From positions 62,001-126,000 of the forward strand of contig NW_026250441.1 of assembly GCF_024521635.1 (NCBI RefSeq): 64,000 bases of DNA, read 5' to 3'. Origin of the DNA: Tricharina praecox. Lineage: Eukaryota. The position numbers and the translations under genes were made by a program. The notes beneath the pieces were generated by a model. The model did not search any database, was not told where the DNA came from, and saw nothing but the letters and a program-made list of their open reading frames with translations. Shown here piece after piece: positions 12,215 to 63,072 of this stretch. Position 1 is the stretch's first letter. Each line of letters opens with the position of its first letter.

Positions 12215-15200
12215 TCAAACTGATACCGTCCCATGGCCATCACTACACCCGTCTTTCTCGGCGGGTATGACATCGGCTCCCTTCTCGGCAAGCAGCCGTA
12301 CCACTGCCTTGTGCCCGTTTTGCACGGCTAGATCCAGTGGCATCCGATCATCGTTATCGGCAGTTGACACTTGCGCTCCTTTCTCGATGAGCAGCCGGGC
12401 CACCGCTTCGTTCCCCGAACGCGCAGCCAGATGAAGTGGCGTCCACCCATTTTTGTGGGCGGCGTCGACGTTCGCTCCCCGTTCAACGAGCAGTCGGGCT
12501 ACTACATCTAGTACCTTCTCTAATGCCCGATACAGTGGCGTCCGCCCATACTTATCGGCAACAGAGACATCGGCTCCATTTTTAACAAGCAGCCAAGCCA
12601 TCGACGAGTCCCCCAGTTGCACAGCCAGATGCAGCGACGTCAACCCGCCTTCATCGCCGGCCGAGACATCAGCACCATTCTCGACGAGCAGCCGGGCCAA
12701 TGCCTCGTCTAGCACATCATGGCCACGTGCAGCGGTGTCCGCCCGCTCGTGTCGGCGGTTGAGACATAGGCTCCGGGCCATCGATACGTCCCTCTGTTGC
12801 ACGGCCAGATGCAGCGACGTAAACCCGTCTTTATAAGCGGTAGACAGATCGGTCCATTTCTTGACGAGCAGCCGAGACACAAAATCTAGGTTGCTCGCTA
12901 ACAGTGTTCTCCATAGTCCGGTCCGGACTGCAGTCTAGACAGGACGGCCTGCCAAGATCTAGTCTCATCCGTAACTTTTTGTGGATGGAATAAAAGTAGT
13001 CCGTCCCGTCCGCCAATTTTCAAGACGGGGTTGGACTGCAGTCGACTCCAGTCCGGTAGTGAAAACAAATGCCACTATTTTCAGCACTTACCCCACGAAC
13101 TTTGATAGTATTCCCCACTCTGGTGTGTTCAATTCCGTCCAGTACCAGCAAAACCGTGAGCGGCGACACCACCTTCGTCCCGCACCAGTACGTCCGCGCC
13201 ACAATCTTCGTCCAGTAGCAATAATCTGCGCCACAATCTGCGCCACAATGTTTGTTTAGTACCATGAACGCCGCGCCGTAATCTTGAGCCCATGCGCATA
13301 TGCTTCCCTCAGCCACTATAACCGCCGATAATATGCCGCGGGCTTTCTATCGTGATTTCTATCGCCTTGCACTAGTCTTGGCAGTCGATTGCAGTCCGTC
13401 CCGTCCGACCATACTGGTGGACTAGTCCGTCCGACAGACACCTCCTGACGGACTGGATGTATGTAGTCCAGTCCAGTCCGAGGCTCAGGGCGGGCGGATT
13501 GGACTATGGAGAACACTGCTCGCTAATGCTAGACAAAGTAGCATCTGCCCATCGTTATCGACGGCTGAGACGTCGGCTTTGTTCTCGCCAGAGAGCCGAG
13601 CCACCGCCTCGTGTCCGTTCTAGACGAGCAGCTGAGCCACCGCCTCGTGTCCTTTCTCCCATGCCCGCTGCGAGGACATCATCCCGTCGTTTGTAGCCGC
13701 CGAGCTTCTCCCATCTGTGATCCGGGTTGAGAGATCTACTCCCTTCTGAATGAGCAGCCGGGTAACCGCCTCGTGCCCCCTTTCTACTGCCCTATGCAGC
13801 GGCATTCTCCCATCTTTGGTAGCGAACGAGATCTTGGCTCCATATTCGATGACCAGCCGGACCAGTGCCTCGTCGCTCATCTCCGAGGCGCGATGCAACG
13901 GGGTCCAACCCTCGTGGTCAGTGGCGGAAACGAAGGCCCCACGTCTAGCAGCTTACGGAAAAGATCCACGTCTCGTAATCTGCACGCGTGGTGAAGTAAC
14001 TGGTTGATTCGTGGCATCTCCAATGGTTTGGATTTGAATACACTGGTAAACCTCCGCTTGAGCCCGAATATTCAAACCGAGGCAAGTACGTTGTTTCTTA
14101 CACGGTGTATTTCTATGGTCCTTTTCCAAAACATGCTTCTGGCGGGTCGCCACATAACTCTCCTGCCATGATATTCACGCCATCGTTGGTAGTTTGCCTC
14201 TGACATGAATGAATCCCAAAGAGGAGTCAACATTTCATCTTCGCAATGGCCGAAATGCCACAGCCAAAAGACCGCCGAGTATATCAAAAAGTGGCGACCG
14301 AGATACTGCCCTTCACTTGTAAGGCTAGTTCTGTCGTAATCAATCCAAGAGTCCGAACTGCAGAGGAGCGAGGGGCAGGCTCTCGCGATCTGGGTATGGG
14401 AGTCGATCTTGCGCAGCCGTGTCTCCACGTATTCGTCGACGGAAAGATACGCAAACCGGAAAACGTCAAGATCTTTGTCCAGGACTAGCAGATTCTGACA
14501 AGCCTTTAACAGGTCGTTCGCATTAACCGACAGATCGTGCGAAAAGCCACCCCGGCAGTCGACCTCCGCCATGATCGCATCGAGCAAGGTTTTGCATTAA
14601 ATCAGCTCGTGGGAAGACTGAATCCCCCGGGACGCATTTAGTGCAAACCGCGAAGCGCTGCCTTTCTGCGTGAGAATGCGCTGGGAGGTTTCGTCGTACG
14701 CAGCGGTGAGGATTTCCGGTAGCACCTTGAGACTGGGTCTTACGTCGTTTTGCGTGGCCATATCGCAGAGAAAGGCGATCTGAAGTGCGGCTAGTTGTAA
14801 CCTGAACCGTCAGTTTCTCCGCTTATAAGTGACTGGAGTAGTTACGGTAAACGTACATTCCCTTGGATCGCTGACGAAGGAGGTTGCATATATCGGCTTG
14901 GAGCCCAGGACACCATGGACTAGTCACTCCTCGTCAATGGCCATCTGAACATTGCTTTCTATAAACTCGTTGATGTCGCCGACATTGTCATCAGGTTGCA
15001 ACTCGATGCGGGGAAACATCGCAAGCTGCAGCAGAATATCAGTGTCCATTCGGGTGGTTGCAAAGATCTTGACGAAATTCTTCGATTTTTCGACGACATA
15101 CTTCAACGACTTGAGTAAATCTATCCGGACTTTGCTATCGACTTCGTCCAAGGCATCAATGCAAATTGCCGTCTTCAAATATATGTAGGTTAGTCAAACA

Positions 15201-17319
15201 AGAAGCTCCCGGCTTTCTGCAAGGCTTAGTCTTGCTTTTTTTTGCCCATTTTTCTCCCTCTCCTCGTTGACATGAACCACCGGCTTCAAGAGTGTGTCCT
15301 CTCCGGACCCAGTCCGGGCGAGTTGTTGAATGAGAGTAATGAGAATACTTTCCGGATTTCGGCGATTATCCTCGGCTCGATTGAGGTAGAAGTATGCTAG
15401 TCTCTCGGGGGTTGGACTGGAAACAAAGGAATCGATAACGCGTGATGCGATGTATGTCTCGCCCGCTCAAGCTAAACGACCGGTGAGTCAAGACATCCGG
15501 CAAAAGGGAATCAACACTTACGAATGCCCGTAAGAGCAGCAGCTTGGAAATACTGGATGATCTCCACTCGCAGTGCTCCCTCCTCTCAAAAAGCCATTCG
15601 CAAGTGCCTTCCAAGCGGGTTTCACTGGTTCGCGTATGGTGACTTGAGTAAGGGACAGTGGATATGCATTGCACCTCCGAGTCACTAGAATAGAGTGAAA
15701 AGGTGAGTACAGGCGTAACTACACTGTGGGGAATCGGCTCGCTTTCGTACCCGCAAGTGTTCGCTGCATGTTATCGATTTGAGGTCCAAGCCGTGATGAC
15801 TTCATGTCTTCGGAGTCCTCCAGCAGCGTCTGAAGTCTCTCGAACCTTATCCGCGTAGCTGAATCGCGTCAAAATTTGAATGGTTCGTGAGGCTGACCAG
15901 AACTGGGTTATACGTACATTGAGCTTCGGCAACACAAGCATCGCGTGCAACCGCTTCCTCCAAGTCCTTGACATCATTAATGTAGTTGGAGGTTTCCCCT
16001 GTCGTGAATACCGCCTCGAGGTGGTTGTCTAAGGAAGGATTAGCGGTGGCTCCTCCAACGGCTACTGTCCGCAAAGAATACTATGCCCCTTTCAATCTCA
16101 CTATGGACTTGGCCAGGAATTTCAAGATTGCCGTGTACAGCCGGAGTATTGACTTCTCTAGGTTTTGAGAAGCCTCCGTTGTTTTGTTTAGATAGAGATG
16201 CTCGTAGATCGCGCACCAATCGGTGATGCAGACACTCTTCTCAAGTCCCACCAGGATCGCGTCTACCGTTTCCTGCTTATCCAAGCAAAGCTGTTGGGTT
16301 TATCGTCAGCGGGTTTCTTTAATCGCAAGTGGTTGAAACCAAATTTCACCTGCAGCAGGAATCGGAAGCCCGCCCACGGCAGCGCAGCGTGTCCGGGGTC
16401 GTATTGGACGACAATGTCCCCGATGTCCTTGAATCTCTGAATCCACCGCCCGATCTTCATGGCAATATCTCTCAAGACAATATCATCGCCTTTGAACCGA
16501 ATCTTCCGATCCTTTCCTTTTCTTTCCTCCATAATCCCATTCGTCATGGTCCCCAAAGCGGCCGCAATCTGACGGGTGTCGGTGTCGATGCGAATACCCG
16601 AAAGCGCTCGGCACTCGTGCGCAGACAGCTCACCGCTGTTGAAAGCCCTACTCCACAACGATGGGGCATCGCCACCGCCAGCCGTCGATGTCGGTTCGTC
16701 TTCGTTTCCATTCTGCACGTGTGTCGCATCGACCACCGGAGCCGTGTCATTTGACATGGCCGTGTCCTGTGTCGCATTCGTCACCGGGGGCGTATCCTTC
16801 GACATCGCCGTACGCTTCGGCGTCGCCATGTCCTGCGCAATCGCTGCATTCGCTGTGATTACCGTGTCCGTCGTCGTCGTGTGCGTCACCATCCTCGTGT
16901 TTTGCGTAATCGCTGCATTCGCTACGGCCACCGGGTCTGCCGTAGCCGTGTCTGCCGTGTCTGTGTCCGCCATCGTATCCGTCACCGGAGCAGTGTCCTT
17001 CGAGGTGGCCGAGTCCTGCGCAATAGCTGCATTCGCCGCGGCCACCGTGTCTGCCGCCGCCGTTAAGGATGTTAGCCCGGGCTGACTTGACGGATCAGAG
17101 GGCTGCGTCGTCGGTTGCACCCCCCGATTGCGGCTCTGCCGAGGATCCTGTCGACGGGACAAGCTGTTGAGTCGAGGGCGAAGGTACTCTGGTCGGGGAA
17201 GCTGCTAACGTGAAGTGTAGTCCCACCGGTGAATGTGCGCTTACGGCTGGCGACTTCGATCGTCCGATTTTCAAAGCCGCGCGTAATCGATCTCGTTTCC
17301 TGGCCGTGCCGGGAGCCAT
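12215..17319 (-). pseudogene. degenerate NACHT-ankyrin NLR-like gene (NWD-type N-terminal domain, NACHT, ankyrin repeats)
   Basis: Fragments in several frames: FKDIGDIVVQYDPGHAALPWAGFRFLL (N-terminal domain), RLEGTCEWLF, ICIDALDE (Walker B), LLKACQNLLV..FRFAYLSVDEY, and many TPLHLAA ankyrin repeats. Walker A is destroyed (P*AGET near 15460). Multiple frameshifts and a MITE insertion. Confidence 0.85.
12902..13518. mobile_element. hAT-type non-autonomous element (MITE), 617 bp
   Basis: Perfect 18-bp TIR CAGTGTTCTCCATAGTCC / GGACTATGGAGAACACTG; perfect 8-bp TSD CTCGCTAA at 12894-12901 and 13519-13526; GTCC/GGAC subterminal motifs. Confidence 0.92.
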
Positions 17320-20409: not shown

Positions 20410-21931
20410 AGCTGCCCATCTAGATGCCTACGCAGGGGGCTGATACATATTACTCTATGTACTCTACTAAATACGATGTCCTGATTTCGAGAACCATACA
20501 TATGAGAACGTGAAGCGACATCTGCTTGCGGTCCTCCAAAGTACTGGGACTAAGTCGTACAGATACTGTTACGTAAGTAAAAATGTGTGAGCAATCGCGA
20601 GCTCATAGCGGTACATATGTAGGAGAATAAGCTATCGATCTTGCCGACTAACGTGGTGCGGTTGAAATTGATTTTGTCTTGCAATCATGCATAAATTCTA
20701 CAAGCACAAGACAGATGTCACTCTTTCACGGGGCGGGGCCATTGAACGCCGCATGGACGGATGGGGGTACTCTAGTTGAACGTCACCGCCACGTTGTCGC
20801 CGTGAATAGCCGAGTAACTATTATCATATGTCGGCATGTTTGTGCTCCACTCCGCCATTGCAGAATCTAGATTGACACTGACGCAACGATGTGTGTCTGT
20901 TTGACGACCTCCCCGCACCGCGTCACCGAATCACGGACCGTGGCATCCGGGAGCCGTGGAGTGCGCTATCCGCAATCGATAATGACCCGTCACCCTCTCA
21001 TCGCGTGGTTCCGTTGTAATCGTTGATCCCTTGCGCTAGGGAGGAGCGGGAAGCTAGAATACATCTTTAAGAAGTTCAATATCGGCAGCGGATGGATTCA
21101 ACCCCCATTGGCTGCTCGTGGCTCTTGTCAAATCACTGAGTGGGGGGGAGGGCTCAGGAAAATATATTTTCACATAAGCCATGCTAAGCGATGGCATGCC
21201 GCATAGCTCACCTCGCGGATGGCTAAGATTGTCTTGCATGGTGCGTTTACCGTGGTCAAGAATAGCTCAAGCTGCGAAAAACAGACGTATCACCCCACCG
21301 ACCACTCCAACACTGCCATCGCCCTGTGCTGTGGGACACGAGACAGCTGTACCAGTTGACGATGGTGAATGGCCCGTCTGGCCAGCTGGCCGGTTTCAAA
21401 CGTATATACCTCCCGAGTTGCTACACGTGGCGGCGAGGATGCTGATAGAAGTCGGGACGGCGCGATGGTCCGAGGAATGATCGATATCAGTGGTGGTGAA
21501 AAGAGTACTCTACATACGCTGTTGCTCTTCCATATTGCTGCCGATAGGCTGCTGATGGATGCGGTAACGGCGCCAGCACATCTGCCAAGTCACGCTGTGC
21601 TTTTAGGTAAGCCACATGAACCCGATGTTCTTCCGTACATAGGTAAGCCAATAACTGTTGCGGCAAAGGTGAATCATTGATGCCCTCGACGAGGCAATCT
21701 AGAGACTCGGGCATTCGTCAGAGGTCTTCGCCATACACACCCACAGACTAGAAAGAATTATTGTCAGAAAACCGGGGTCACCTCAGCCGAAAACCTAAAA
21801 GAGGGTTGCGAGGCGGGGATTCGGGGCATCCCTGGTTCCTTCAAATATTCGCCCTTCGCTCAAGGACGGTTTACTTCAACTTTATCGACAACAACTGCTT
21901 CTTCAACTTTATCGAAAACAACTGCTTCCCG

Positions 21932-24900
21932 ATGTCAAAACGCCAGAAATCCGACCACCATACGCGAGCGCCTCCGCCAGTGCCAAGTGTCAGGCTATCC
22001 GGTGCGACACCGTCCACGCACCCAACAGACTCTAGTCGCAGGTACCAGGGTACCACACACTTGGAGTTTAGGGGAGGGGAGTTTCATGGCGGGCAGAACT
22101 TCTATTCCAACGGGTGAGTCTCGGGACTACGTTTGGAGATCGCATATTCTACTTAGTTCGAGTAGAGTGGATTTAAGGATGGCTAACCGGAATTCGCTAG
22201 CAGTTCCGACAGTAAGCGACGTTGCTCGATCAAAAACACTTTACTACCCTCCTGGAACTAACTTTGAGCTTTAGCCCCCGAGTCGAAATGTTTGCGCTGT
22301 CTCTACACTTCCGACTATGAATCCCACAAGGACAGAAACCCTAAGCGAGTGGATGGAACGCTTGAATGGTTTCTCCGTCACGAAAAGTATCGGCACTGGC
22401 AAGAAAAAGATTCGAGTCTTCTATGGGTGACGGCAGATCCGGGATGCGGAAAAACCATGCTGGCCGCATTTCTAGTGGACGAGCTGAGTGTCCACTCGGA
22501 ACCTCGCGACACCGTCTGCTTTTTCTTCTTCAAAGATGACAATCAGGAACAGAAATCTGCGACATTGGCTCTTTCCGCCCTCCTCCACCAGCTCTTTTCG
22601 GCGAAGCCATTCCTTCTCCGGCATTCCTTGAAAGATTACAACGACAAGGGCGCGAAATTTACAGAACAATTCGGTACGCTGTGGCGCATCTTCCGGGCAG
22701 CAACCACCGACCCGGACTGCGGCAATGTCATTTGCATCATCGACGCTTTGGATGAATGCGAAGAATCGACTCGAAAGTCCCTCATCGATTCTTTAGTCAG
22801 CAGCTACACACCAGCGATCGGCACAGGGCGCAGCACGGGCGAAACGCTTCCAAAATTCATCCTCACCAGTCGCCCATACGGCTCCATCGAAAAACAATTC
22901 GGTACACAACTTATCAGATTGAAAGCGGAGGAGCAAACACCCGCCATCAGCGAAGACATTGAGCGTGTCATCGATTCCGAAGTTGAGTTGCTGGGGAATG
23001 TGTGGCACCTCACTGATGACGACCGGATAATTATCCGAGACAAGCTCATCCGGGGCGCCGATCATACATTCCTGTGGGTTTCCCTGATTGTCAAAATCCT
23101 CCACGGTAGTCAAGCAGCTTCGCGGAGGAAATTCCTTCAAACTCTCAACAGCCTACCGAGTAACCTCGAAAGCGTCTACGAAAAGATCCTTGAAGATATT
23201 TGTGACCGCGAAGAGGCCAAACGGATTCTCCAAATAGTCGTCGCGGCTACACGACCCCTCACACTCGACGAGATGGACATCGCACAAGCGATTCAGCGGG
23301 ATCACAAATCAATCGAGGACCTCCAGCCGTGCCGCCTGTACTCCTTCGAAAGCACGGTGAAGAACACATGCGGACTTTTCGTGAAGGTCATAGACTCGAA
23401 GATCTACCTTATCCACCAAACGGCGAAGGAGTTCCTGATCAAGGGCACAGCTACCGCCACATCTGCTACGGAAATTACCACGTGGAAGCAATCACTTTGT
23501 CCTATCGAATCAAACCTCACCCTCGCGAAGAGTTGCCTTTATTTTCTCTTGTTTAATGTCTTTGAAACCCACCCTCTGGCACTACGAGCGCAGGGATCGG
23601 ATATAGATGGCTACACCATAGGGCATGTGTTTTTAGATTATGCAGCTAAAAATTGGACGGCTCACGTCCAAGAGGCCAAGATATGGGAGGATGAGAAACT
23701 CTCCGCTATTGCGTTGAAGGTTTACACGAGTGGGTCGGGGCGGCTGCTGACATGGTTCCAAGTTTACATGGCGAGCAACTGTGAGTATTGGAACTTCGAT
23801 AACATGAGTGGGCTTGCAGTAGCATCATATATTGGTCAGGATGCGGTGGTGGAGCTGCTAATAGAACAGGGAGAAGACGTCAACAGTGGCCGTAGCCTAT
23901 ACAACAATGCTTTGAATGTGGCTGTTCGAAAGCGAAATAGGAATGTGATCATGTTGCTGCTCAACAGAGGAGCCATTGTCTTTCTATTCGGAAGTGAATA
24001 TTGGAACCTTTTAGAGGTTAACAGATGTCTTTCCCTTTCCATGACTGAAACCAGAGCTAATAGTTTGCTTATATCGTGCCATAGTCTGTAAGTAGAATTG
24101 CTAGTTGGCAAAAGCGTCTCTCTGATAAAAGACTGACATTCGTGGCCACTTTCCGACAGCGAGTATGAACACTTCCTCCTCCCTACAAGCGCTGGGAGGG
24201 ATCGCTGACATTCATCCCGTTTCTGTCACAGCGGGTGACCTGACCTATTTCACCCCTCCAGTCGAGGTGTACCGCTGACAGTGAGCGCTGTGCGCCTCAT
24301 AGACGGTATGATGCGTATCGTTATACCTTCCTTACTCTCGACTGCACTGACCTTCGGGCACGATGGGAGAAACAGGATGTACGTAAAGCTGATGGCAATT
24401 CGCTATTCTTCGACGACAGTGCTGACACTGACGAACGACTATGATAGTTTGTGAGTGGGCGAGATAGATGCTCATTACCCACGGCAAACATAACGGACAG
24501 CTGACCTCGGGGTTGTTTGTGATGGTAGCGGGTAGACACTCATATTACTCAGCCTAGATTGAGTAAGGAAACAAGACTAACATTGAGTTTCCCATCGAAA
24601 ATAGAAAGTGAGTGCGAGGAATGGGCCTGTTTTGGCTCCTAGAGACTATACGGCTAACGTTCGGTCCACTTTGCAATAAAGTGGGTAAATGAAATAATGA
24701 GGGTCCGTCTACTACATTAAGAGTGTATCACTGATTGTCGGTTCCTGGGGAACGAAGACCGTGAGTGAACCAAATCACTTGGGTGTGCCTCTCCACATGG
24801 CTGACTTTCGGATCGCTTTGCTTTGCAGGAAGTAAGTGAACCAAATCACTTGGGTGTGCCTTTACACATGGCTGACTTTCGGATCGCTTTGCTTTGCAGC

Positions 24901-27900
24901 GCGTAAGTGAACCACATCACTTGGGTGTGCCTTTCCACATGGCTGACTTTCGGATCGCTTTGCTTTGCAGTGGGTAAGTGAACCAAATCACTTGGGTGTG
25001 CCTTTCCACATGGCTGACTTTCGGATCGCTTTGCTTTGCAGGAAGTAAGTGAACCACATCACTTGGGTGTGCCTTTCCACATGGCTGACTTTCGGATCGC
25101 TTTGCTTTGCAGATTGTAAGTGAACCAAATCACTTGGGTGTGCCTTTCCACATGGCTGACTTTCGGATCGCTTTGCTTTGCAGGAAGTAAGTGAACCACA
25201 TCACTTGGGTGTGCCTTTACACATGGCTGACTTTCGGATCGCTTTGCTTTGCAGCGCGTAAGTGAACCACATCACTTGGGTGTGCCTTTCCACATGGCTG
25301 ACTTTCGGATCGCTTTGCTTTGCAGTGGGTAAGTGAACCACATCACTTGGCTGTGCCTTTCCACATGGCTGACTTTCGGATCGCTTTGCTTTGCAGCGCG
25401 TAAGTGAACCAAATCACTTGGGTGTGCCTTTCCACATGGCTGACTTTCGGATCGCTTTGCTTTGCAGGAAGTAAGTGAACCACATCACTTGGGTGTGCCT
25501 TTCCACATGGCTGACTTTCGGATCGCTTTGCTTTGCAGCGCGTAAGTGAACCACATCACTTGGGTGTGCCTTTCCACATGGCTGACTTTCGGATCGCTTT
25601 GCTTTGCAGATTGTAAGTGAACCAAATCACTTGGGTGTGCCTTTCCACATGGCTGACTTTCGGATCGCTTTGCTTTGCAGGAAGTAAGTGAACCACATCA
25701 CTTGGGTGTGCCTTTCCACATGGCTGACTTTCGGATCGCTTTGCTTTGCAGGAAGTAAGTGAACCACATCACTTGGGTGTGCCTTTCCACATGGCTGACT
25801 TTCGGATCGCTTTGCTTTGCAGGAAGTAAGTGAACCACATCACTTGGGTGTGCCTTTACACATGGCTGACTTTCGGATCGCTTTGCTTTGCAGCGCGTAA
25901 GTGAACCACATCACTTGGGTGTGCCTTTCCACATGGCTGACTTTCGGATCGCTTTGCTTTGCAGTGGGTAAGTGAACCAAATCACTTGGGTGTGCCTTTC
26001 CACATGGCTGACTTTCGGATCGCTTTGCTTTGCAGGAAGTAAGTGAACCACATCACTTGGGTGTGCCTTTCCACATGGCTGACTTTCGGATCGCTTTGCT
26101 TTGCAGATTGTAAGTGAACCAAATCACTTGGGTGTGCCTTTCCACATGGCTGACTTTCGGATCGCTTTGCTTTGCAGGAAGTAAGTGAACCACATCACTT
26201 GGGTGTGCCTTTACACATGGCTGACTTTCGGATCGCTTTGCTTTGCAGCGCGTAAGTGAACCACATCACTTGGGTGTGCCTTTCCACATGGCTGACTTTC
26301 GGATCGCTTTGCTTTGCAGTGGGTAAGTGAACCACATCACTTGGCTGTGCCTTTCCACATGGCTGACTTTCGGATCGCTTTGCTTTGCAGCGCGTAAGTG
26401 AACCAAATCACTTGGGTGTGCCTTTCCACATGGCTGACTTTCGGATCGCTTTGCTTTGCAGGAAGTAAGTGAACCACATCACTTGGGTGTGCCTTTCCAC
26501 ATGGCTGACTTTCGGATCGCTTTGCTTTGCAGCGCGTAAGTGAACCACATCACTTGGGTGTGCCTTTCCACATGGCTGACTTTCGGATCGCTTTGCTCTG
26601 CAGTCGGTACGTGAACCAAATCACTTGGGTGTGCCTTTCCACATGGCTGACTTTCGGATCGCTTTGCTTTGCAGATTGTAAGTGAACCAAATCACTTGGG
26701 TGTGCCTTTCCACATGGCTGACTTTCGGATCGCTTTGCTTTGCAGGAAGTAAGTGAACCACATCACTTGGGTGTGCCTTTCCACATGGCTGACTTTCGGA
26801 TCGCTTTGCTTTGCAGGAAGTAAGTGAACCACATCACTTGGGTGTGCCTTTCCACATGGCTGACTTTCGGATCGCTTTGCTTTGCAGGAAGTAAGTGAAC
26901 CACATCACTTGGGTGTGCCTTTCCACATGGCTGACTTTCGGATCGCTTTGCTCTGCAGTCGGTACGTGAACCAAATCACTTGGGTGTGCCTTTCCACATG
27001 GCTGACTTTCGGATCGCTTTGCTTTGCAGATTGTAAGTGAACCAAATCACTTGGGTGTGCCTTTCCACATGGCTGACTTTCGGATCGCTTTGCTTTGCAG
27101 GAAGTAAGTGAACCACATCACTTGGGTGTGCCTTTCCACATGGCTGACTTTCGGATCGCTTTGCTTTGCAGGAAGTAAGTGAACCACATCACTTGGGTGT
27201 GCCTTTCCACATGGCTGACTTTCGGATCGCTTTGCTTTGCAGGAAGTAAGTGAACCACATCACTTGGGTGTGCCTTTCCACATGGCTGACTTTCGGATCG
27301 CTTTGCTTTGCAGGAAGTAAGTGAACCACATCACTTGGGTGTGCCTTTCCACATGGCTGACTTTCGGATCGCTTTGCTTTGCAGGAAGTAAGTGAACCAC
27401 ATCACTTGGGTGTGCCTTTACACATGGCTGACTTTCGGATCGCTTTGCTCTGCAGTCGGTACGTGAACCAAATCACTTGGCTGTGCCTTTCCACATGGCT
27501 GACTTTCGGATCGCTTTGCTTTGCAGGAAGTAAGTGAACCACATCACTTGGGTGTGCCTTTACACATGGCTGACTTTCGGATCGCTTTGCTTTGCAGCGC
27601 GTAAGTGAACCACATCACTTGGGTGTGCCTTTCCACATGGCTGACTTTCGGATCGCTTTGCTTTGCAGATTGTAAGTGAACCAAATCACTTGGGTGTGCC
27701 TTTCCACATGGCTGACTTTCGGATCGCTTTGCTTTGCAGGAAGTAAGTGAACCACATCACTTGGGTGTGCCTTTACACATGGCTGACTTTCGGATCGCTT
27801 TGCTTTGCAGCGCGTAAGTGAACCACATCACTTGGGTGTGCCTTTCCACATGGCTGACTTTCGGATCGCTTTGCTTTGCAGGAAGTAAGTGAACCACATC

Positions 27901-28696
27901 ACTTGGGTGTGCCTTTCCACATGGCTGACTTTCGGATCGCTTTGCTCTGCAGTGGGTAAGTGAACCAAATCACTGGGCGTGCCTTTCCACATGGCTGACT
28001 TTTGGCCGGCCTTCCAATATACAGGAGGTAAGAAAACCTGATCACCCGAACCTCCCGTGACATTCATCTGACCATCGCCTCTCTTTGCGTCGCGGAAGGT
28101 AAGTGAACTGAAGCACCATGCATGTGTGACGCCGGTAGGAAAGTACTGAAATATGGGCTCCGGTTTCGCGCAGATTGTAAGCTCACTTCCTTTGAATGCT
28201 GTTCACTGTGCCCGGCGGTTGGCTCACATTGGCTTGACTTTCTTCGCAGGCGGTAATTGAACCTCCTCGCCGTGATGATCATTGACTGATACTATCTGCC
28301 TTTCCCCCTGGCCTTTTACGTCTTAGAAAGTACGTGACTTGTTCTATGATCCTCTTTGCTTTGTCGGTGCTAATAAAAGGTATCTGATGTCTCAGTTTGT
28401 ATGTATCATTCTTTCGGTTCATTCCGTCTGCGCCACAATTGATCGGTCTGTTGCTAACACACGGTAGCTGGTAAGTAATATGTTCCCATCCGCGCGTCGT
28501 ACTGTGGTGCTAACGTACGGCTGATTGATTTCCGCAGGAAGTAAGTCTTTTCGCTCAGGGCCCTTTTCTTTCTCGGAGCTGTTACCGACTGTAGGCTCTT
28601 CTTGGCCTCTAGGAGGTAAGTGGGGTCTTTTTCTGGTTGCTAGTCGTTTATTTGTCATCGTTGACCTTTTACCAGTTTTGCCTTGATGATGTTTGA
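21932..28696 (+). CDS. fungal NLR-like NACHT-ankyrin protein with a C-terminal tail encoded by about 63 three-nucleotide micro-exons
   Basis: Exons 21932-22113, 22201-22211 and 22275-24016. The third carries Walker A ADPGCGKT, Walker B CIIDALDEC, GADHTFLWV, LIHQTAKEFL, LDYAAKNW and about 2 ankyrin repeats. Then 3-nt exons between canonical introns from 24085 to 28615, and a terminal exon 28676-28696 (FCLDDV*). Confidence 0.88.
24761..28024 (+). repeat. 71-bp tandem array = 68-nt spliceosomal intron + 3-nt micro-exon; 45 full units plus one partial
   Basis: Unit GTAAGTGAACCAMATCACTTGGGTGTGCCTTTMCACATGGCTGACTTTCGGATCGCTTTGCTTTGCAG + NNN, with donor GTAAGT, branch GCTGAC, a pyrimidine tract and acceptor CAG. 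Micro-exons fall at 24829 + 71n (n=0..44). Confidence 0.95.
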
Positions 28697-56358: not shown

Positions 56359-59300
56359 GATGTGTAGAGTTTCGTATCGAAGATGTAGGAGCGTGTACGT
56401 GTGGGGTAGAGTGATCGCGGTCGTCCATTAGGTTGTGATTAGGGGCAGATGGGGACGGATTGCTGGAAGGTAAGGGGGGATGGCGATGCAAAAGGACATT
56501 CCAGTTGTTGTTTTCACAGCATTCCCACTTTCCTCGGGCGCCCGCAACTAGAACAGTGCAATCAAGGAGAGAAATTCCACTACTCTCCTAACAGGGGCGG
56601 GCGAGTCGGCGGACAGGGCTGGTGGGGTGTATGGATAGGCGCGCGCGCGGAGAAGGACCGTATCGCCCAGATTAAACGAGGGTTGATGTTGATAAAGACC
56701 GTCAAACAGGTACCGAGATGATAAAGGAAACAAGGCAAGAAGAAGAACAAGAAGAAGAAGATAGCGAGAGAAAGAACGAAGGAAAGAAGCCCAGCGGATG
56801 GGCTGAGGAAGCAGCTGCGGCGGTGCTTGCGCGCACCCAATCGCCCATATATGATATATCGCCACACGAGTGGACCGCCGCCGCCGTCAGTGTCGTGATA
56901 CATGGTGGGCAGTGTGGGGTTAGGAAAAGCACCTATTGTGAGCTGCGTCTACACCCTGCGCGTCCGTGGCCAATCAGCGGCGCCTACCCCTGACGATTTT
57001 TCGGGGATTTGGTGGGAAGGATCTACGACAACGTGCGTGGGCGCCTACTGGTCCATGCCGAGCGAGTACTTGACTCCTACATGAGGTAGTAGGTACTGGT
57101 ACCTGCAGTACTCGCTTCGGTCAGCAGGAATTCAAGACTCCGACCCGGGGCCGCTGCCGCCGGAAAGCAAGTCGATACCGGTTTTCGATCGCGAACTGTA
57201 CATACGAGTGGGAAAGAGAGACTTCCTCCGACCGCCACCGCACCAGCACAAGAACTCCACAGACTCTGAAGAGCAGAGCGTGTCGTCTCGTGCCATTATG
57301 CCATAGTACATAGCTGGCTAGGTAGCTGCTATTATCCTCAGCTTCCGTAAATAGAATCCATCTCCTAGAAGAATCATTCGATGCGCGTCGTTGGGTGGCA
57401 GACGGTCCACAGACGGCGTCCGCCACTCTGTTCGCAACCTGGTGTGGCTGTCATCACTGAACACTGCATAATCGGCAGCCACCACAGCAGTTCCATTGGC
57501 GAAGAGCTGCCATGCGGCCAGGCCATGTCTATCATCCGCGATAAAAATAGATGCAGAAGAACGACGCGTCGAGTCAAGTCGTCAACGCCGTTTGGTGCGG
57601 AATCCGGAACCATATCGCAGGAGTGAGAGAGCCGAGAGGTGTGACCACTGACAGCCTACAGAACATGTGCACTTTCGTTGTGGTGGCGTCGGACGCGGAG
57701 CCGAGATCGCGCCTGTGTGGCGTCGTCATGTGGCGGATACGCCACACCGGAGGTGTCTCGGCAAGGCTAATTGCACAGCCACGAACACTTCACCTCGCTA
57801 TCACTCCTATCGCGATCGCTTCGGTGACAGCGGGATCGCCAGATGATTCGTGGCGCAAAAGCTGTGGCTGAGTTCCGCAGATCAACTGACAACACCACGG
57901 CCAGGCGGGGGGGAATCAACCCCGGCCGGCCGGATCTGCAGCACTGCTGGTCAATGGTCATTGATGCTTATGTACGCAACGCGCTGAGCGCGACTGCTTT
58001 CCTAATCAAACTGAAAAGTTCGCCCAAGACCCAAGTGTGTAATCGATACGGTACCGCTCATCCAGCATTCCGCACTTGTGAACTCCACATTCCGCAAGCC
58101 CGAGGCCGCTACGGTAGCTCCACCTGAATGAGACCGCCCAGTGCCCACCATTCCCGCAGCAGAATGCCAGAATGAGGCGCCTCACGTATGTATTTCCGGC
58201 CAACTCGCCCGGAAACCCTTCCCTTCTTTCTGAATAGTGTGATAGTAGCTCGCTCCAGTAAGAGCCGTACCGCCGACTTTCCCCACACCGAAACAGCCTC
58301 CATCAAGCCAGCTTTACACTCAATAAAAGGTGATCTCATCGATGCCATGCGCTTCGGTGCTCTTTAAGCAGCGGAATTACAGTACAAACATACCTGTACC
58401 CGTTTTCAATTCCTCCGTCGGACATAAGGAGAATCAGGCACTCACAAGTTTCCACCGACGTTGCGCTCGCTAGAGTGCTCTAGAGGAGACCGATCAACGC
58501 TCCGTACTACGCAGGCCATATGTCTCGTTTTTGTTTTTCTGTTTAATCATCTTGCGGTGGGCCATGTGACCGAAGCGAGCGCAACAAGGGGGTCTTCAGA
58601 TCGAGTGACGGCGCATGCTAACTGCATTCCGGCCACCCGCCTCAACTCGCGTGCCGTATTATGAAATTTAATAGATCTAGTCTATCGACTACTGTTAGTA
58701 CAGTCATCCCATCGCATCGCTGCAATAATTTGATCTGTCATTGAAAACCGCGATCCCGCCCTTCGCCCTTCGCCCGGTTAGCATAGAGTAGAGTAGAGTT
58801 GGCCAGGTCCGCCCTGCCACCAGCGTGCCTAACCGCCGACTGATCGCCAACACAACACTCCACGATCCCCCAAGCTCGCTCGCGTTCGCGGGCGCCTCGC
58901 GAAATTAAGGATCTCCCACCCCACCCACCCCACCCCACCCCTCCCCTCGCTTTGTGCTCCATGTAGCATGGCCGTTGATCCAACTGACTAGCAGCTGCCA
59001 ACTGAGACATCGGTCGATAAGCGACTTTGACAGCTGCTGAGTGGTGCACAACTGCGCAAGTGCTGTTCTTTAGTTTCTGGGTAACTATTGCACATCCTTT
59101 CGGCTTTGCACATGCCGGACGGACGGGGGGGAACGGGCCTGGCGTGGTATGGCCTGGGCGACGAGGATGTGATGGTGATGGTGATTTCGATGTTAGAGGT
59201 ATCATACACACATACATGGAGAAGGTAGGCAAATACAAGCAGTTCTACCGTTATATGCTTAATACGACACTTATTATCCCGTCCAGGCTGTCCTGCCCGC

Positions 59301-61092
59301 CTTCGCTTATTCGAACAAACGTCGAGGGCGACTGAAACATGCACACCAGCTGGAGCTGATGCTGCTTGGTGATGTATGCAGGTGGGGGGATCAGTGGTAC
59401 CGGTGACTTGAAATCTCTGCGATCCAGGACCTGTGAAAGCGCGCAGGACTTGGAAATTGGAGTCAGAGTCAGAGTCGGTGGGCGATGCGACCGTGACGGT
59501 GTGACGGACTGAGACCTGACTTGGGCTGACTTGACTTGATGATCTGGGTCTCGTGTGAATGTGAATGTGAATGTGGATGTGGATGTGGATACGTCGCTGC
59601 TAACTACGCCGTGCGACCGATCGATGAGGACTCGGGGAAAATGGTGGTTCCCGGGGGAGCGGGGGAGTGATCTTCTCTGCTCCACACCTCCACCCCCGGG
59701 GGCCGGCGCCCAGGTGAGGCTGCCTCAGTGGTTCTCCATAGCGGTAGGTATGTACGGTCAATACGACGAAACAAACACACAAATGACCGCCGGTGATAGA
59801 GATCGATATATATGATATTCCGTTCGTCCGCGCTGAAGTTCCCGAGCCCGAGAGTTAGATGGTGAGTGATCATTCATGCCGCGCATTGAAGGGCCTACCT
59901 ATCATACCGAACCCGAGCACCGAAAGCTCCCCGCCTGCGCCCATCCCGCTTCGCAAGAACATCATCCACTGACGTCTAAGTTCGAATCAACCCGCAACCA
60001 AGACCGAGACCTCACAGCCAAAACCGGCCAATCCTCGCGCTCAGTCACCCCTCAGCCCCTATAGGTACACGAACCCCAACCAATCCCCGCCCCAACCGAT
60101 AATCGGTACCCCAGCAACGGGTGCACACTCGCGGTCTCGTGACTGCTAACTGCGCGTCGGTAGGTAGGTAGGTACTGTTGAATTAAATGATACAGTAACC
60201 ACTTCGCGAACACTGAACAGCGCGACCTCTCTATATAGATAGATACAAGGCGGCAGACTCTCGGTCGGCGGCGATGTCTTCGGCGGCGCCGCCTTAGTCC
60301 GCCGGCCGGTGCTCCGTCAGCCGTCCTCCGTCCTCCGGCCTATGGGTCCGTGCCCGTGTCCGTGGCCGGTGGATCCTCATCTCCGAATGCCATATTGATA
60401 GGTATTTACCGGATCCACAAACCTCGTGAGCAGTAGTGATGAGCAGTGATGAGCAGCGGGTTGATATGGATGACTTGTCACGTGTGGTTGTGGCCATCCG
60501 GCGTGGATGTTGGGATTAGTTGTTGTGTAAGATGGCAATGTAGTGTGGTTGCGTGTCAGTACATAAGGTGGTGGGTGGATCAGTGCTGGGAGGTGTCGGT
60601 TGAGAGGCATGGGTGGTGAGTACGCGAGGTGGGAAGGAAGGAATGGAGGAGTGAAGGGTGAATGGCAATCGAACGTAACCACATACCCTGAGCGTTTGAG
60701 GGACTTCTGAATAACTGCAAGTCGGAATAGGTAGTACTGCAGCTCATTCGTCGCTCGCTCGCACAAGAGCATGCACAAGATTGTGCTGCGCTCCACCACT
60801 CAGCGTCACTCGGCACCGAGTCGAGTCGGATAGGCTTGGAAAACACAGACTGCTCCGATCGCTTCTGTGAATGAATCGTCAACAGCAATCAAAACCGCTA
60901 TTGAAGCCGCAGCTCACGATCCACGCACCTGTGGAGATTTCCTTCCAAGCTTGTATCACGTGACCCGCCATGACGCGACGCTGCATCCGCTCCTCTAGGC
61001 ACTTATCCCTCGCACTCGCACTCGCACCCACCACTCACCTCCCACCCACCTCCCACCTCCGAACCCACCTCCCACCTCCGAACCCACTCTCG

Positions 61093-61716
61093 ATGACCAC
61101 TTCCACCACCGCGCGCCCTCTCCCCATCCCCCTCCCACCCACCCTAATCCCCGCCCTCCTCGCCTCGGACAGCAGCATCTACCCCTCCCCGCTCACGCTT
61201 TCCACTTTAACCAGCTGGATCACCACTGCGCCCAGCAGCACACTATACTACCCCTCGAGTGGCATCGCGGTCTCGCTGCCACTGCAGCTACCATACTGGC
61301 TCCTGCTGACCTCGGGAGAACTGAAGGAATGGGAGCTCACACCCTCCATGTTCGCCGCGCCTGGTGCTGCGGCGGCGGAGGTCGGCGTGCACGTGTGGCA
61401 TGTGGAGCGGTGGGATGGCTGGCGGAGGGAGTGGGGAGTGTTTGGGGATGTGGTGCGGCAGGACTTGGGGCTGGCGGCGGGAGGAAGGTGGAGCGCGCTT
61501 GTGGTTACGCATGAGGGCAGAAGGATGTTTGAACGCCGCTGGGGAGGACGGGAGGGGGCGTATAGCGGACAAGTTGTTGTGGGGGGTGTGCTCAGGGAGA
61601 GGGAGGAGTGGGAGCGGAAGGGTGGGGTGGGCACGGTCGAGGGGTGGGGAGTTATGATTGTTGGTGGAGGGGGAGGGGGCGTGGGGGAGCAAACCGCGAT
61701 GGAACGCGATGGTTGA
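61093..61716 (+). CDS. hypothetical protein (possibly GNAT-like fold)
   Basis: Open frame with a typical C-rich to G-rich codon gradient; SIYPSPLTLSTLTSWI, GVHVWHVER and SALVVTHEGRRMFE motifs. Confidence 0.6.
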   Translation: MTTSTTARPLPIPLPPTLIPALLASDSSIYPSPLTLSTLTSWITTAPSSTLYYPSSGIAVSLPLQLPYWLLLTSGELKEWELTPSMFAAPGAAAAEVGVHVWHVERWDGWRREWGVFGDVVRQDLGLAAGGRWSALVVTHEGRRMFERRWGGREGAYSGQVVVGGVLREREEWERKGGVGTVEGWGVMIVGGGGGGVGEQTAMERDG

Positions 61717-63072
61717 GTGCCGTGGGGGAGGGAGCCGCGATGGAATTTGCCTGTTGAGTGTAGTGGAGGAGCAAGCCTCGATGGAACTTGCCTTTTGGTT
61801 GCCACGGGGGAGGGGGGCAGGGGGCTAGACTCGACGAAGAGTTCCTCTCCTCGCGCTTTCGGGTATGAACTTTTCCGGCTGGTGTAGCCTTGCTGCACCG
61901 CGTGTAGTAGCTGGTTGGAACTATCGTCGTCTTGCATCAAAGACTACGGTGACGCCCCGGAAGTTGCCGCTATTGATATCGACAGTGGAGACGGGTTGTG
62001 GAGACGGAAGGCATTCCTCTAGGGATAGGGAAAAGTGTATGATTTGTTTCGTGCTTCTGTTTCTTTTCTCCATTGAGCGCATACCATGATGCCACAGCCC
62101 GTTCCAAGCCATGGAGATATAATTATACACCCTCTTCCCTCATTTTTGCTTTTTATGTTTCGAGTCGTGAGTCTGGAGTCTCGGATTGGAATGCACGATG
62201 CAACTCCGTCACTGTCATATGACATCGCCAGCTGCAGCGTATGCAGCGTAGGAAGACCCCCACCGCCCTCTTTTTTCATCTTCTTTGCAATTACCACTGC
62301 ATTCGACCTCCCTAGATCATGGTCAGTTACATAACCAGTCCCTCCCACAGTCCCACTCCTCATGTTCTGTGCCGAGGAAAGCGATGAGGCGTTAAACTGG
62401 CTGGAGGAGTTAGTTGGGGGAAGGGACTTCGATGTGGGGATTTGAAAGACTGGAGGCATGTCGCGCGCGTTTTCCTTTTCCTGTTGACGTCTCCTTTCCA
62501 TCTTTCTTTCTGTCTCTTTCTGTGTGTAGACGGACTGGGCAGAGAGCAATAGGGAACCCCGTCGAGCTCGCGGCCAGTGGCCAGCGTTCGGAAACAGTAG
62601 GGTGGAACCGGATGTGTGTACGGCATAGGTACAGCCATGATCTGCTAAGGTCGAATGCTACCTACTAGGATGAAATCAGAAAATAATCTTCATGTTTTGT
62701 TTCTCCATTGTTTGCATGCGCCCGATCTACCGTAGATCATGGTAATGGGTATACAGCGTACCCACTCCTGAGTCCTCATGTGCCGGCGCCACCCGATCCA
62801 CCAACCCCACTACCCCATCTCCGAGTGACCGCTGATGCGGGATCACCCGGAACCGCCCCGCATCTTCCCGCAGAGTAGCAGAGTAGCAGAGTAGAGAAGC
62901 ACAGTGACATCACCCTGCAGACTGCGTCGATCTTCAAACGTCGATCTTCAGCCTCGTATTCCCCCGCAGCGCATCATTCACTTTCGCGCATTCCTCGCTC
63001 GTGAGTCGTTACACCTGATTTCGATTCCTGAGGGCGGAAACGAGTTCCGGCCGGCCGATGGTGCATTTTCAG

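Follow-up and report, generated by a model that had tools for sequence, protein, structure and literature searches.

The locus raises the question of what a NACHT gene with a short ankyrin stack carries in the place of a long sensor-repeat domain, for which a preliminary description had proposed a charged, E/R/W-rich helical tail read from single-codon exons. We analyzed the window, meaning the whole stretch of 64,000 nucleotides in which the gene lies, which is fungal. In the long frame 22268-24091, Pfam detected NPHP3_N/NACHT together with a winged helix and a single weak stretch of ankyrin type, and the gene was delineated as follows (evidence in brackets):

21669..22113, + strand: 5′ exon (RNA contigs spanning 21667-22113; frame from the DNA)
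22204..22211, + strand: 8-nt exon (letters found between 22113 and 22275 in both RNA runs; AG/GT flanks)
22275..24016, + strand: main exon with a phase-0 end (Pfam; AlphaFold model; RNA joints at both ends)
24085..24684, + strand: head of the tail, nine 3-nt exons at 24085, 24160, 24232, 24303, 24376, 24448, 24529, 24605 and 24682 (RNA runs X1 and X2)
24685..24757, + strand: intron with a weak donor and an AAG acceptor (retained in RNA contigs; DNA)
24758..24760, + strand: tenth 3-nt exon, at the array edge (DNA)
24764..28002, + strand: tandem array, 45.6 copies of 71 nt, with 45 exons from 24829 to 27953 (DNA)
28025..28615, + strand: end of the tail, eight 3-nt exons at 28025, 28174, 28250, 28327, 28396, 28468, 28538 and 28613, plus a doubtful one at 28096 (DNA)
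28676..28696, + strand: last exon, six codons and the stop, phase 0 (DNA)

The main exon encodes a NACHT domain (NPHP3_N), a winged helix, a helical domain and two ankyrin repeats, with a hairpin at the end. The AlphaFold model of the gene body reached a pLDDT of 88.7, its C-terminal part consisting of two ankyrin helix pairs and the hairpin, and the single Ank_2 stretch in the body lies below the Pfam cut-off, in agreement with the about two ankyrin repeats counted previously. A fold search with the protein body returned general STAND and AAA+ matches only. The best named sequence matches were from Tricharina, Wilcoxina, Sphaerosporella and Trichophaea (50-79%), genera of the Pyronemataceae, followed by Choiromyces and Tuber (39-44%). 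The Tuber melanosporum ‘NACHT-ANK domain protein transcript variant 5’ was matched with an E value of 1.6e-129, and variants 1-5 share 40-41% identity with the window protein over 99% of the query. These five variants form a cluster that is identical to about the aligned end of the window's main exon, so that the tails alone differ, by missing residues and by different ends. With its NACHT plus ankyrin architecture, evident from Pfam, homology and the model, and its homology to the Tuber proteins, the window gene is a nank-type fungal NLR.

At the amino terminus, we infer that translation starts at the first in-frame ATG (21932). RNA contigs link the 5′ exon further upstream across a GT..AG intron, and the spliced leader (21669-22113) has ATGs that precede the main start in other frames and represent possible upstream ORFs. 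The N-terminal piece encoded by the 5′ exon is 60 residues long and includes a short G/F/H-rich motif; neither a Pfam match nor a known effector domain was found for this piece. The motif (window 21992-22111) has seven matches in the genome, two of them to itself, three upstream of NPHP3_N hits and two others (C47:91463, C85:10604); it is common to C47:85654, C10:256839, C85:10604, C47:91463 and, weakly, C41:164243, three of which lie just upstream of NPHP3_N hits. It resembles amyloid-type signalling motifs of the family and may have an amyloid signalling role. In amyloid-signalling NLRs, the N-terminal motif is matched by the C-terminus of an effector; none of the seven genome matches was shown to be such a C-terminus. 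Elsewhere in the window, a decayed second NACHT-ANK gene with stops occupies 12218-17204 on the minus strand; it is divergent from the micro-exon gene, and its ankyrin part is apparently broken by an insertion near 12900-13500.

Downstream of the main exon, the stretch 24085-28615 contains 64 candidate exons of 3 nt, all of them preceded by a GT..AG intron of 66-78 nt. Their joined translation reproduces the string of the preliminary description, and, as had been stated, all of the 63-64 codons are free of Pro, Gly and stop. The exon AAG at 28096, which encodes the Lys given earlier in brackets, has the acceptor CGG instead of AG and is doubtful, leaving 63. A chain finder linked 56 exons in the window compared to at most three in 50 shuffled 10-kb loci. 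The gene thereby shows the C-terminus of tens of 3-bp exons that characterizes the Tuber nank genes, with 63-64 such exons in the DNA and the first nine spliced in RNA. Head and end zone (28025..28615) have introns of unique sequence, not of the array type, whereas the array unit of 71 nt comprises a 68-nt intron and one codon. Two donors compete at the main exon end, leaving the phase ambiguous from the DNA by itself; RNA fixes phase 0, and the alternative phase 1, which reaches a stop at step 14, was discarded. Most introns of the tail (24017-28675), including unique ones, have their branch-point motif at a distance of ~25 nt to the acceptor, farther than in the array of a second gene described below. 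Window 28096-28104 appears to be a former exon, where the first AG past the branch point abuts the next donor, and may act as a zero-length exon.

The RNA contigs derive from runs X1 and X2 of two studies and are nearly all 99% alike; runs X3 and X4 gave no cover of the gene (two of four runs yielded contigs). The comparison covered the DNA to 24750, and exons 10-64, the whole array and the gene end are described from the DNA only. In both runs, the contigs exit the main exon at 24016, and the nine triplets that come first are spliced together in phase 0. Contigs retaining a single intron were found for the introns after 24016, 24087, 24378 and 24531. X1 and X2 both also have contigs that read past exon nine into the intron beginning at 24685, where 11 codons are read before the stop at 24718-24720. 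Retained forms were observed for five introns of the head, and none of the joints listed for X1 and X2 up to 24750 skips a micro-exon. In X2, the depth of the contig entering the intron after exon nine was 669.9 and that of the body 898.6, contig depth being unsuited to rank gene parts. Together with the retained intron, this depth hints that many transcripts may end the protein before the array.

Within the array, the 45 exons use five codon types, encoding Glu, Arg, Trp, Ile and Ser. Per-site diversity over the 44 full units is 0.66-0.69 for the codon positions vs. 0.017 for the intron, where 5 of 68 sites are variable, whereas the codons differ at two or three positions. The units are clean, each 71 nt long with codon-linked intron variants, and all of them keep the splice signals and the 3-nt spacing. 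An 11-codon run recurs at a lag of 14 units (p 0.0005), indicating block copying, and since only five codon types are used and this run is repeated, the E/R/W richness has been copied and not independently chosen. The repeat unit has no other occurrence elsewhere in the genome. A 13-base pattern searched across the genome matched 149 and 87 times compared to 86 and 82 for the controls, the excess being largely due to this gene and its duplicate. Near-identical introns with only the codon varying between them suggest a peptide that changes fast and not a fixed helix.

We compared these features with 61 metagenome loci. In twelve of them, all 50-70% identical, 3-nt exons form a chain that follows the same exon end, and all twelve have a tandem array (period 64-83, up to ~86 copies). 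L097 (51% identical), L099 and L122 showed no 3-nt-exon chain; chains of 4-5 in L125, L129 and L145 hardly exceed the maximum of 3 reached by shuffling and were left out of the count, and L088, a near copy of L086, was excluded from the totals. The resulting 415 exons in 11 distinct loci, in tail strings with gaps where weak exons were missed, encode 18.8% Arg, 12.5% Glu, 7.7% Pro and 3.6% Gly. The single stop among them was a parsing slip, the true exon at that locus lying four bases upstream. In all eight related loci with enough central units, counting L088 as a near copy of L086, codon diversity exceeded that of the flanking intron (0.44-0.71 vs. 0.03-0.36). Restricted to the arrays of the window and the 11 related loci, 317 exons contain zero stops; they correspond to 101 locus-by-codon types, for which ~4.7 stops would be expected (p ~0.008; the loci are not independent). 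For the nine loci parsed that far, the head positions Phe-6 and Arg-7 are present in nine out of nine, and Asp-5 and Trp-9 in six. The related loci likewise finish in unique-intron exons with hydrophobic residues. The longest related array, L092:10554-17507, combines units of 83 and 70 nt in ~86 copies; its micro-exons number at least 94, and it extends beyond the stretch analyzed.

A second NACHT-ANK gene of this genome, on C39 at ~58470-62000 (+ strand; L045:1971-5500), has its own 69-nt intron+codon array of 35 copies, the intron of which is unrelated in sequence to that of the window array. Over 33 units, its codon diversity is 0.38-0.74 vs. 0.024 for the intron. This paralogue probably splices in phase 2, as both its best donor and its next-to-last exon point there; a phase-0 reading as a Pro/Gly-rich tail was set aside, since the likelier phase 2 gives no Pro and three Gly in 36. 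In phase 2, each residue would be built from two neighbouring exons, the first base of the next exon (C or G) choosing between Phe/Leu, Asp/Glu or Ile/Met. Among 50 genome stretches around NACHT hits, 3-nt chains were found in two, the C39 paralogue and an assembly duplicate of the window gene; an expanded paralogous family as in Tuber was not found in these stretches, a set restricted to the NACHT genes that the searches detected. The duplicate, contig C63 (L031, L032, L081-L084), corresponds to window 6342-56344 and contains ~15 units vs. 46, with several codons damaged. Its shorter array may reflect a genuine difference in length or result from the assembly, and with 15 and 46 units in two contigs of one assembly it gives a hint only of length polymorphism. 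Several ordinary NLRs of the genome (L041, L044, L050-L054, L063, L064) carry highly similar coding ANK or WD40 repeats with periods of 99, 102 and 126 and 88-95% matches.

The proposed tail in place of a long sensor repeat is thus borne out, as it is coding, with no stop in the array exons and an RNA-spliced head, and is positioned where a sensor repeat would be. We consider it probable that the gene is a nank-type NLR with a three-zone tail of one-codon exons, in which the array is kept as a variable sense peptide by recombination and selection, is varied further by splicing and has a sensor role. In the first zone, a conserved head of ~9 residues is spliced as a block, as seen in RNA, and is likely to complete or cap the ankyrin stack. 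In the second, unequal exchange and block duplication would homogenise the introns and alter the number and order of the units; the codons stay different, suggesting that a variable sense peptide is kept by diversifying selection. The third zone is a short hydrophobic end that is better conserved. Retained introns truncate the tail at various positions within the head and may do so in the array; skipped exons, known from Tuber, may give rise to further variants. Most likely, the tail would serve as a variable surface for recognition or regulation, in the place of the long ankyrin sensor that other NACHT genes of the genome possess. By analogy with NLR biology, binding of a non-self cue would set the NACHT domain free for oligomerisation. 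It is a reasonable inference that the tail is a candidate ligand-specificity module. Against this explanation stand the reading of both runs into the intron after exon nine, by which much of the protein may end before the array, the lack of a skipped micro-exon among the joints listed and of a known N-terminal effector domain, and the two genes found in the 50 stretches instead of an expanded family.

The first of these points belongs to the main rival, which we regard as unlikely: the working protein would end after the head via the retained intron, or a few nearby introns, and the array would be mostly untranslated, either as a by-product of slippage and unequal crossing-over or for control at the RNA level only, by splicing delay or nonsense-mediated decay. 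Retention of this intron in both runs, with its stop 11 codons in, speaks for this explanation; block duplication would also account for the residue order, and the composition differs freely between loci. An untranslated by-product, however, is at odds with the splice signals and 3-nt spacing kept in all array units, with the lack of stops among the 101 locus-by-codon types, with codons that differ at two or three positions against 5 of 68 variable intron sites, and with the conserved in-frame end 3′ of the array.

Considerably less probable is the model of the preliminary description itself, in which the whole tail was selected as a charged helix and the addition or removal of single residues would rotate its register and change binding. 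The window tail is indeed helix-friendly, with a mean propensity of 0.38 vs. 0.52 kcal/mol for the body, and the model of a Tuber isoform forms a helix over the first ten tail residues (635-644; block pLDDT 67, then 51). A short capping helix in the head, following the last ankyrin hairpin, is therefore plausible on the basis of this model, and for the first ~10 residues the helix claim may stand. It does not extend to the E/R/W array. Neither the hydrophobic moment at 100 degrees nor i+3/i+4 salt bridges exceeded 2000 shuffles for the tail or the array alone (p 0.25-0.78), and the same held for the head and the retained-intron peptide in the helical-register test (p 0.55 and 0.75). When each array type was counted once (n = 23), the lack of Pro/Gly had a p of 0.04 under uniform sense codons and of 0.18 under protein-body frequencies. 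The array is limited to five codon types copied in blocks, and Pro or Gly occurs in 10 of the 11 related tails, with 12 Pro each in L087 and L092, the middles of which are Pro-rich, and a Pro at head position 3 in L091 and L092; the C39 paralogue in its likely phase adds three Gly. Rotation of a helical register by single residues thus finds no signal, and the micro-exon composition across relatives, which had been suggested as a check, argues against a helix trait and in favour of coding. Because of the Pro and Gly in these loci, the array middle is not a selected helix, and because no stop occurs in the 317 array exons, it is, judged from its sequence, not random DNA either. As a family trait, the charged helix is largely refuted for the array. 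That assembly inflated the 46-unit array is highly improbable. C63, with ~15 units, would speak for it, but its damaged part is the indel-rich one, the window units are clean, 71 nt long and marked by codon-linked intron variants, and independent metagenome contigs (L086, L087, L092) contain arrays of about 47-86 copies.

The intron ends of the arrays are also well preserved between loci. Outside the splice signals, they are 74-90% identical to the window in 21 of 22 between-locus comparisons, the exception (39%) carrying a deletion, compared to 44-80% for third codon positions and 29-71% for the first intron. Pairing of the first 16 bases of the intron with the stretch behind the branch point is stronger than after shuffling in each of the 12 related arrays, with median z values from -0.6 to -4.1, compared to -0.36 for 40 flank introns and +0.6 for the C39 array. 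Compensatory changes were found in 0 of 11 pairs over 36 units, and RNAalifold gave no consensus structure for the array intron. Because of the missing compensatory change, pairing of the intron ends stays a lead only. It would fit into a two-tier diversity generator, a tentative extension of the favoured three-zone reading that we consider possible although somewhat unlikely. Homogenised introns would serve as recombination handles to add, drop or reorder codons, possibly within one mycelium in view of the 15 and 46 units of one assembly, and conserved, partly complementary intron ends would let any donor pair with any downstream acceptor region, thereby determining the choice of codons that are spliced together and the point at which the tail ends. 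The randomised peptide between a fixed head and end would then act as the NLR sensor.

In the literature searched, the codon-sized exons of truffles rest on one 2012 study of an organism that is hard to manipulate, as far as the citing papers describe it. The same layout is now present in a second group of the Pezizales with RNA support for the head, and a visible engine at the DNA level is added, tandem introns kept alike while a single codon varies ~40x more, joining two known routes of fungal NLR diversification, mini-exon splicing and concerted evolution of repeats. The locus also offers a clean system in which to study how the spliceosome copes with dozens of 3-nt exons in a row and by what route these exons increase in number. 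Gene callers run through the first intron and lose the whole tail in most close relatives, so that the layout is probably under-reported.

Among known systems, the closest is the Tuber family, for which the citing passages describe NACHT-ANK genes with tens of alternatively spliced codon-sized exons (PMC4986451, PMC10197012, PMC3689799, PMC9815663), traced to the 2012 study (Fungal Biol 116:261, PMID 22289772) that is cited also in PMC13449251. Owing to this precedent, from homologues and from what the citing papers state, the one-codon-exon layout is already known. The window gene shares with Tuber nank the homologous NACHT-ANK body, the short ankyrin stack and the tail start at about the same aligned place and, by the same passages, the tens of 3-nt exons and isoforms with different end points. 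It differs in that its nearest named proteins are from Tricharina, Wilcoxina, Sphaerosporella and Trichophaea and not from truffles, in that two genes are found here compared to the expanded family those passages report and, going by these citing descriptions, through which Tuber is known here, in that most exons lie in a homogenised tandem intron+codon array. This array is the new element. We found no report of tandem intron+codon arrays, or of this layout outside Tuber, in the openly accessible literature searched; subscription papers, including Iotti 2012 with its supplements, may describe them.

Brown-algal NB-ARC-TPR and ROCO-LRR genes carry one repeat per exon in the account given by PMC13449251. 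Like these, the window gene is a candidate immune receptor diversified by exon-level shuffling and alternative splicing; in the algal genes so described, however, an exon is a whole structural repeat and not one codon, and lineage and domains are unrelated. For the Podospora anserina HNWD genes het-d and het-e, the accessible accounts (PMC13449251, PMC9815663) report near-identical units with hypervariable positions and propose unequal crossing-over. As in such HIC repeat NLRs, according to these accounts, the window array combines near-identical tandem units with hypervariable codons and an apparently changing copy number, and it lies at the C-terminus of a NACHT protein, the sensor end. The HIC unit is described there as a coding WD40, ANK or TPR repeat, whereas 68 of the 71 bases of the window unit, a 68-nt intron and one codon, are intron; the array works like HIC repeats but is not a HIC member. 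Here the conserved part would be spliced away, and the variable codons alone would reach the protein. By analogy, the array resembles the concerted evolution of the Podospora HNWD repeats at the scale of one codon.
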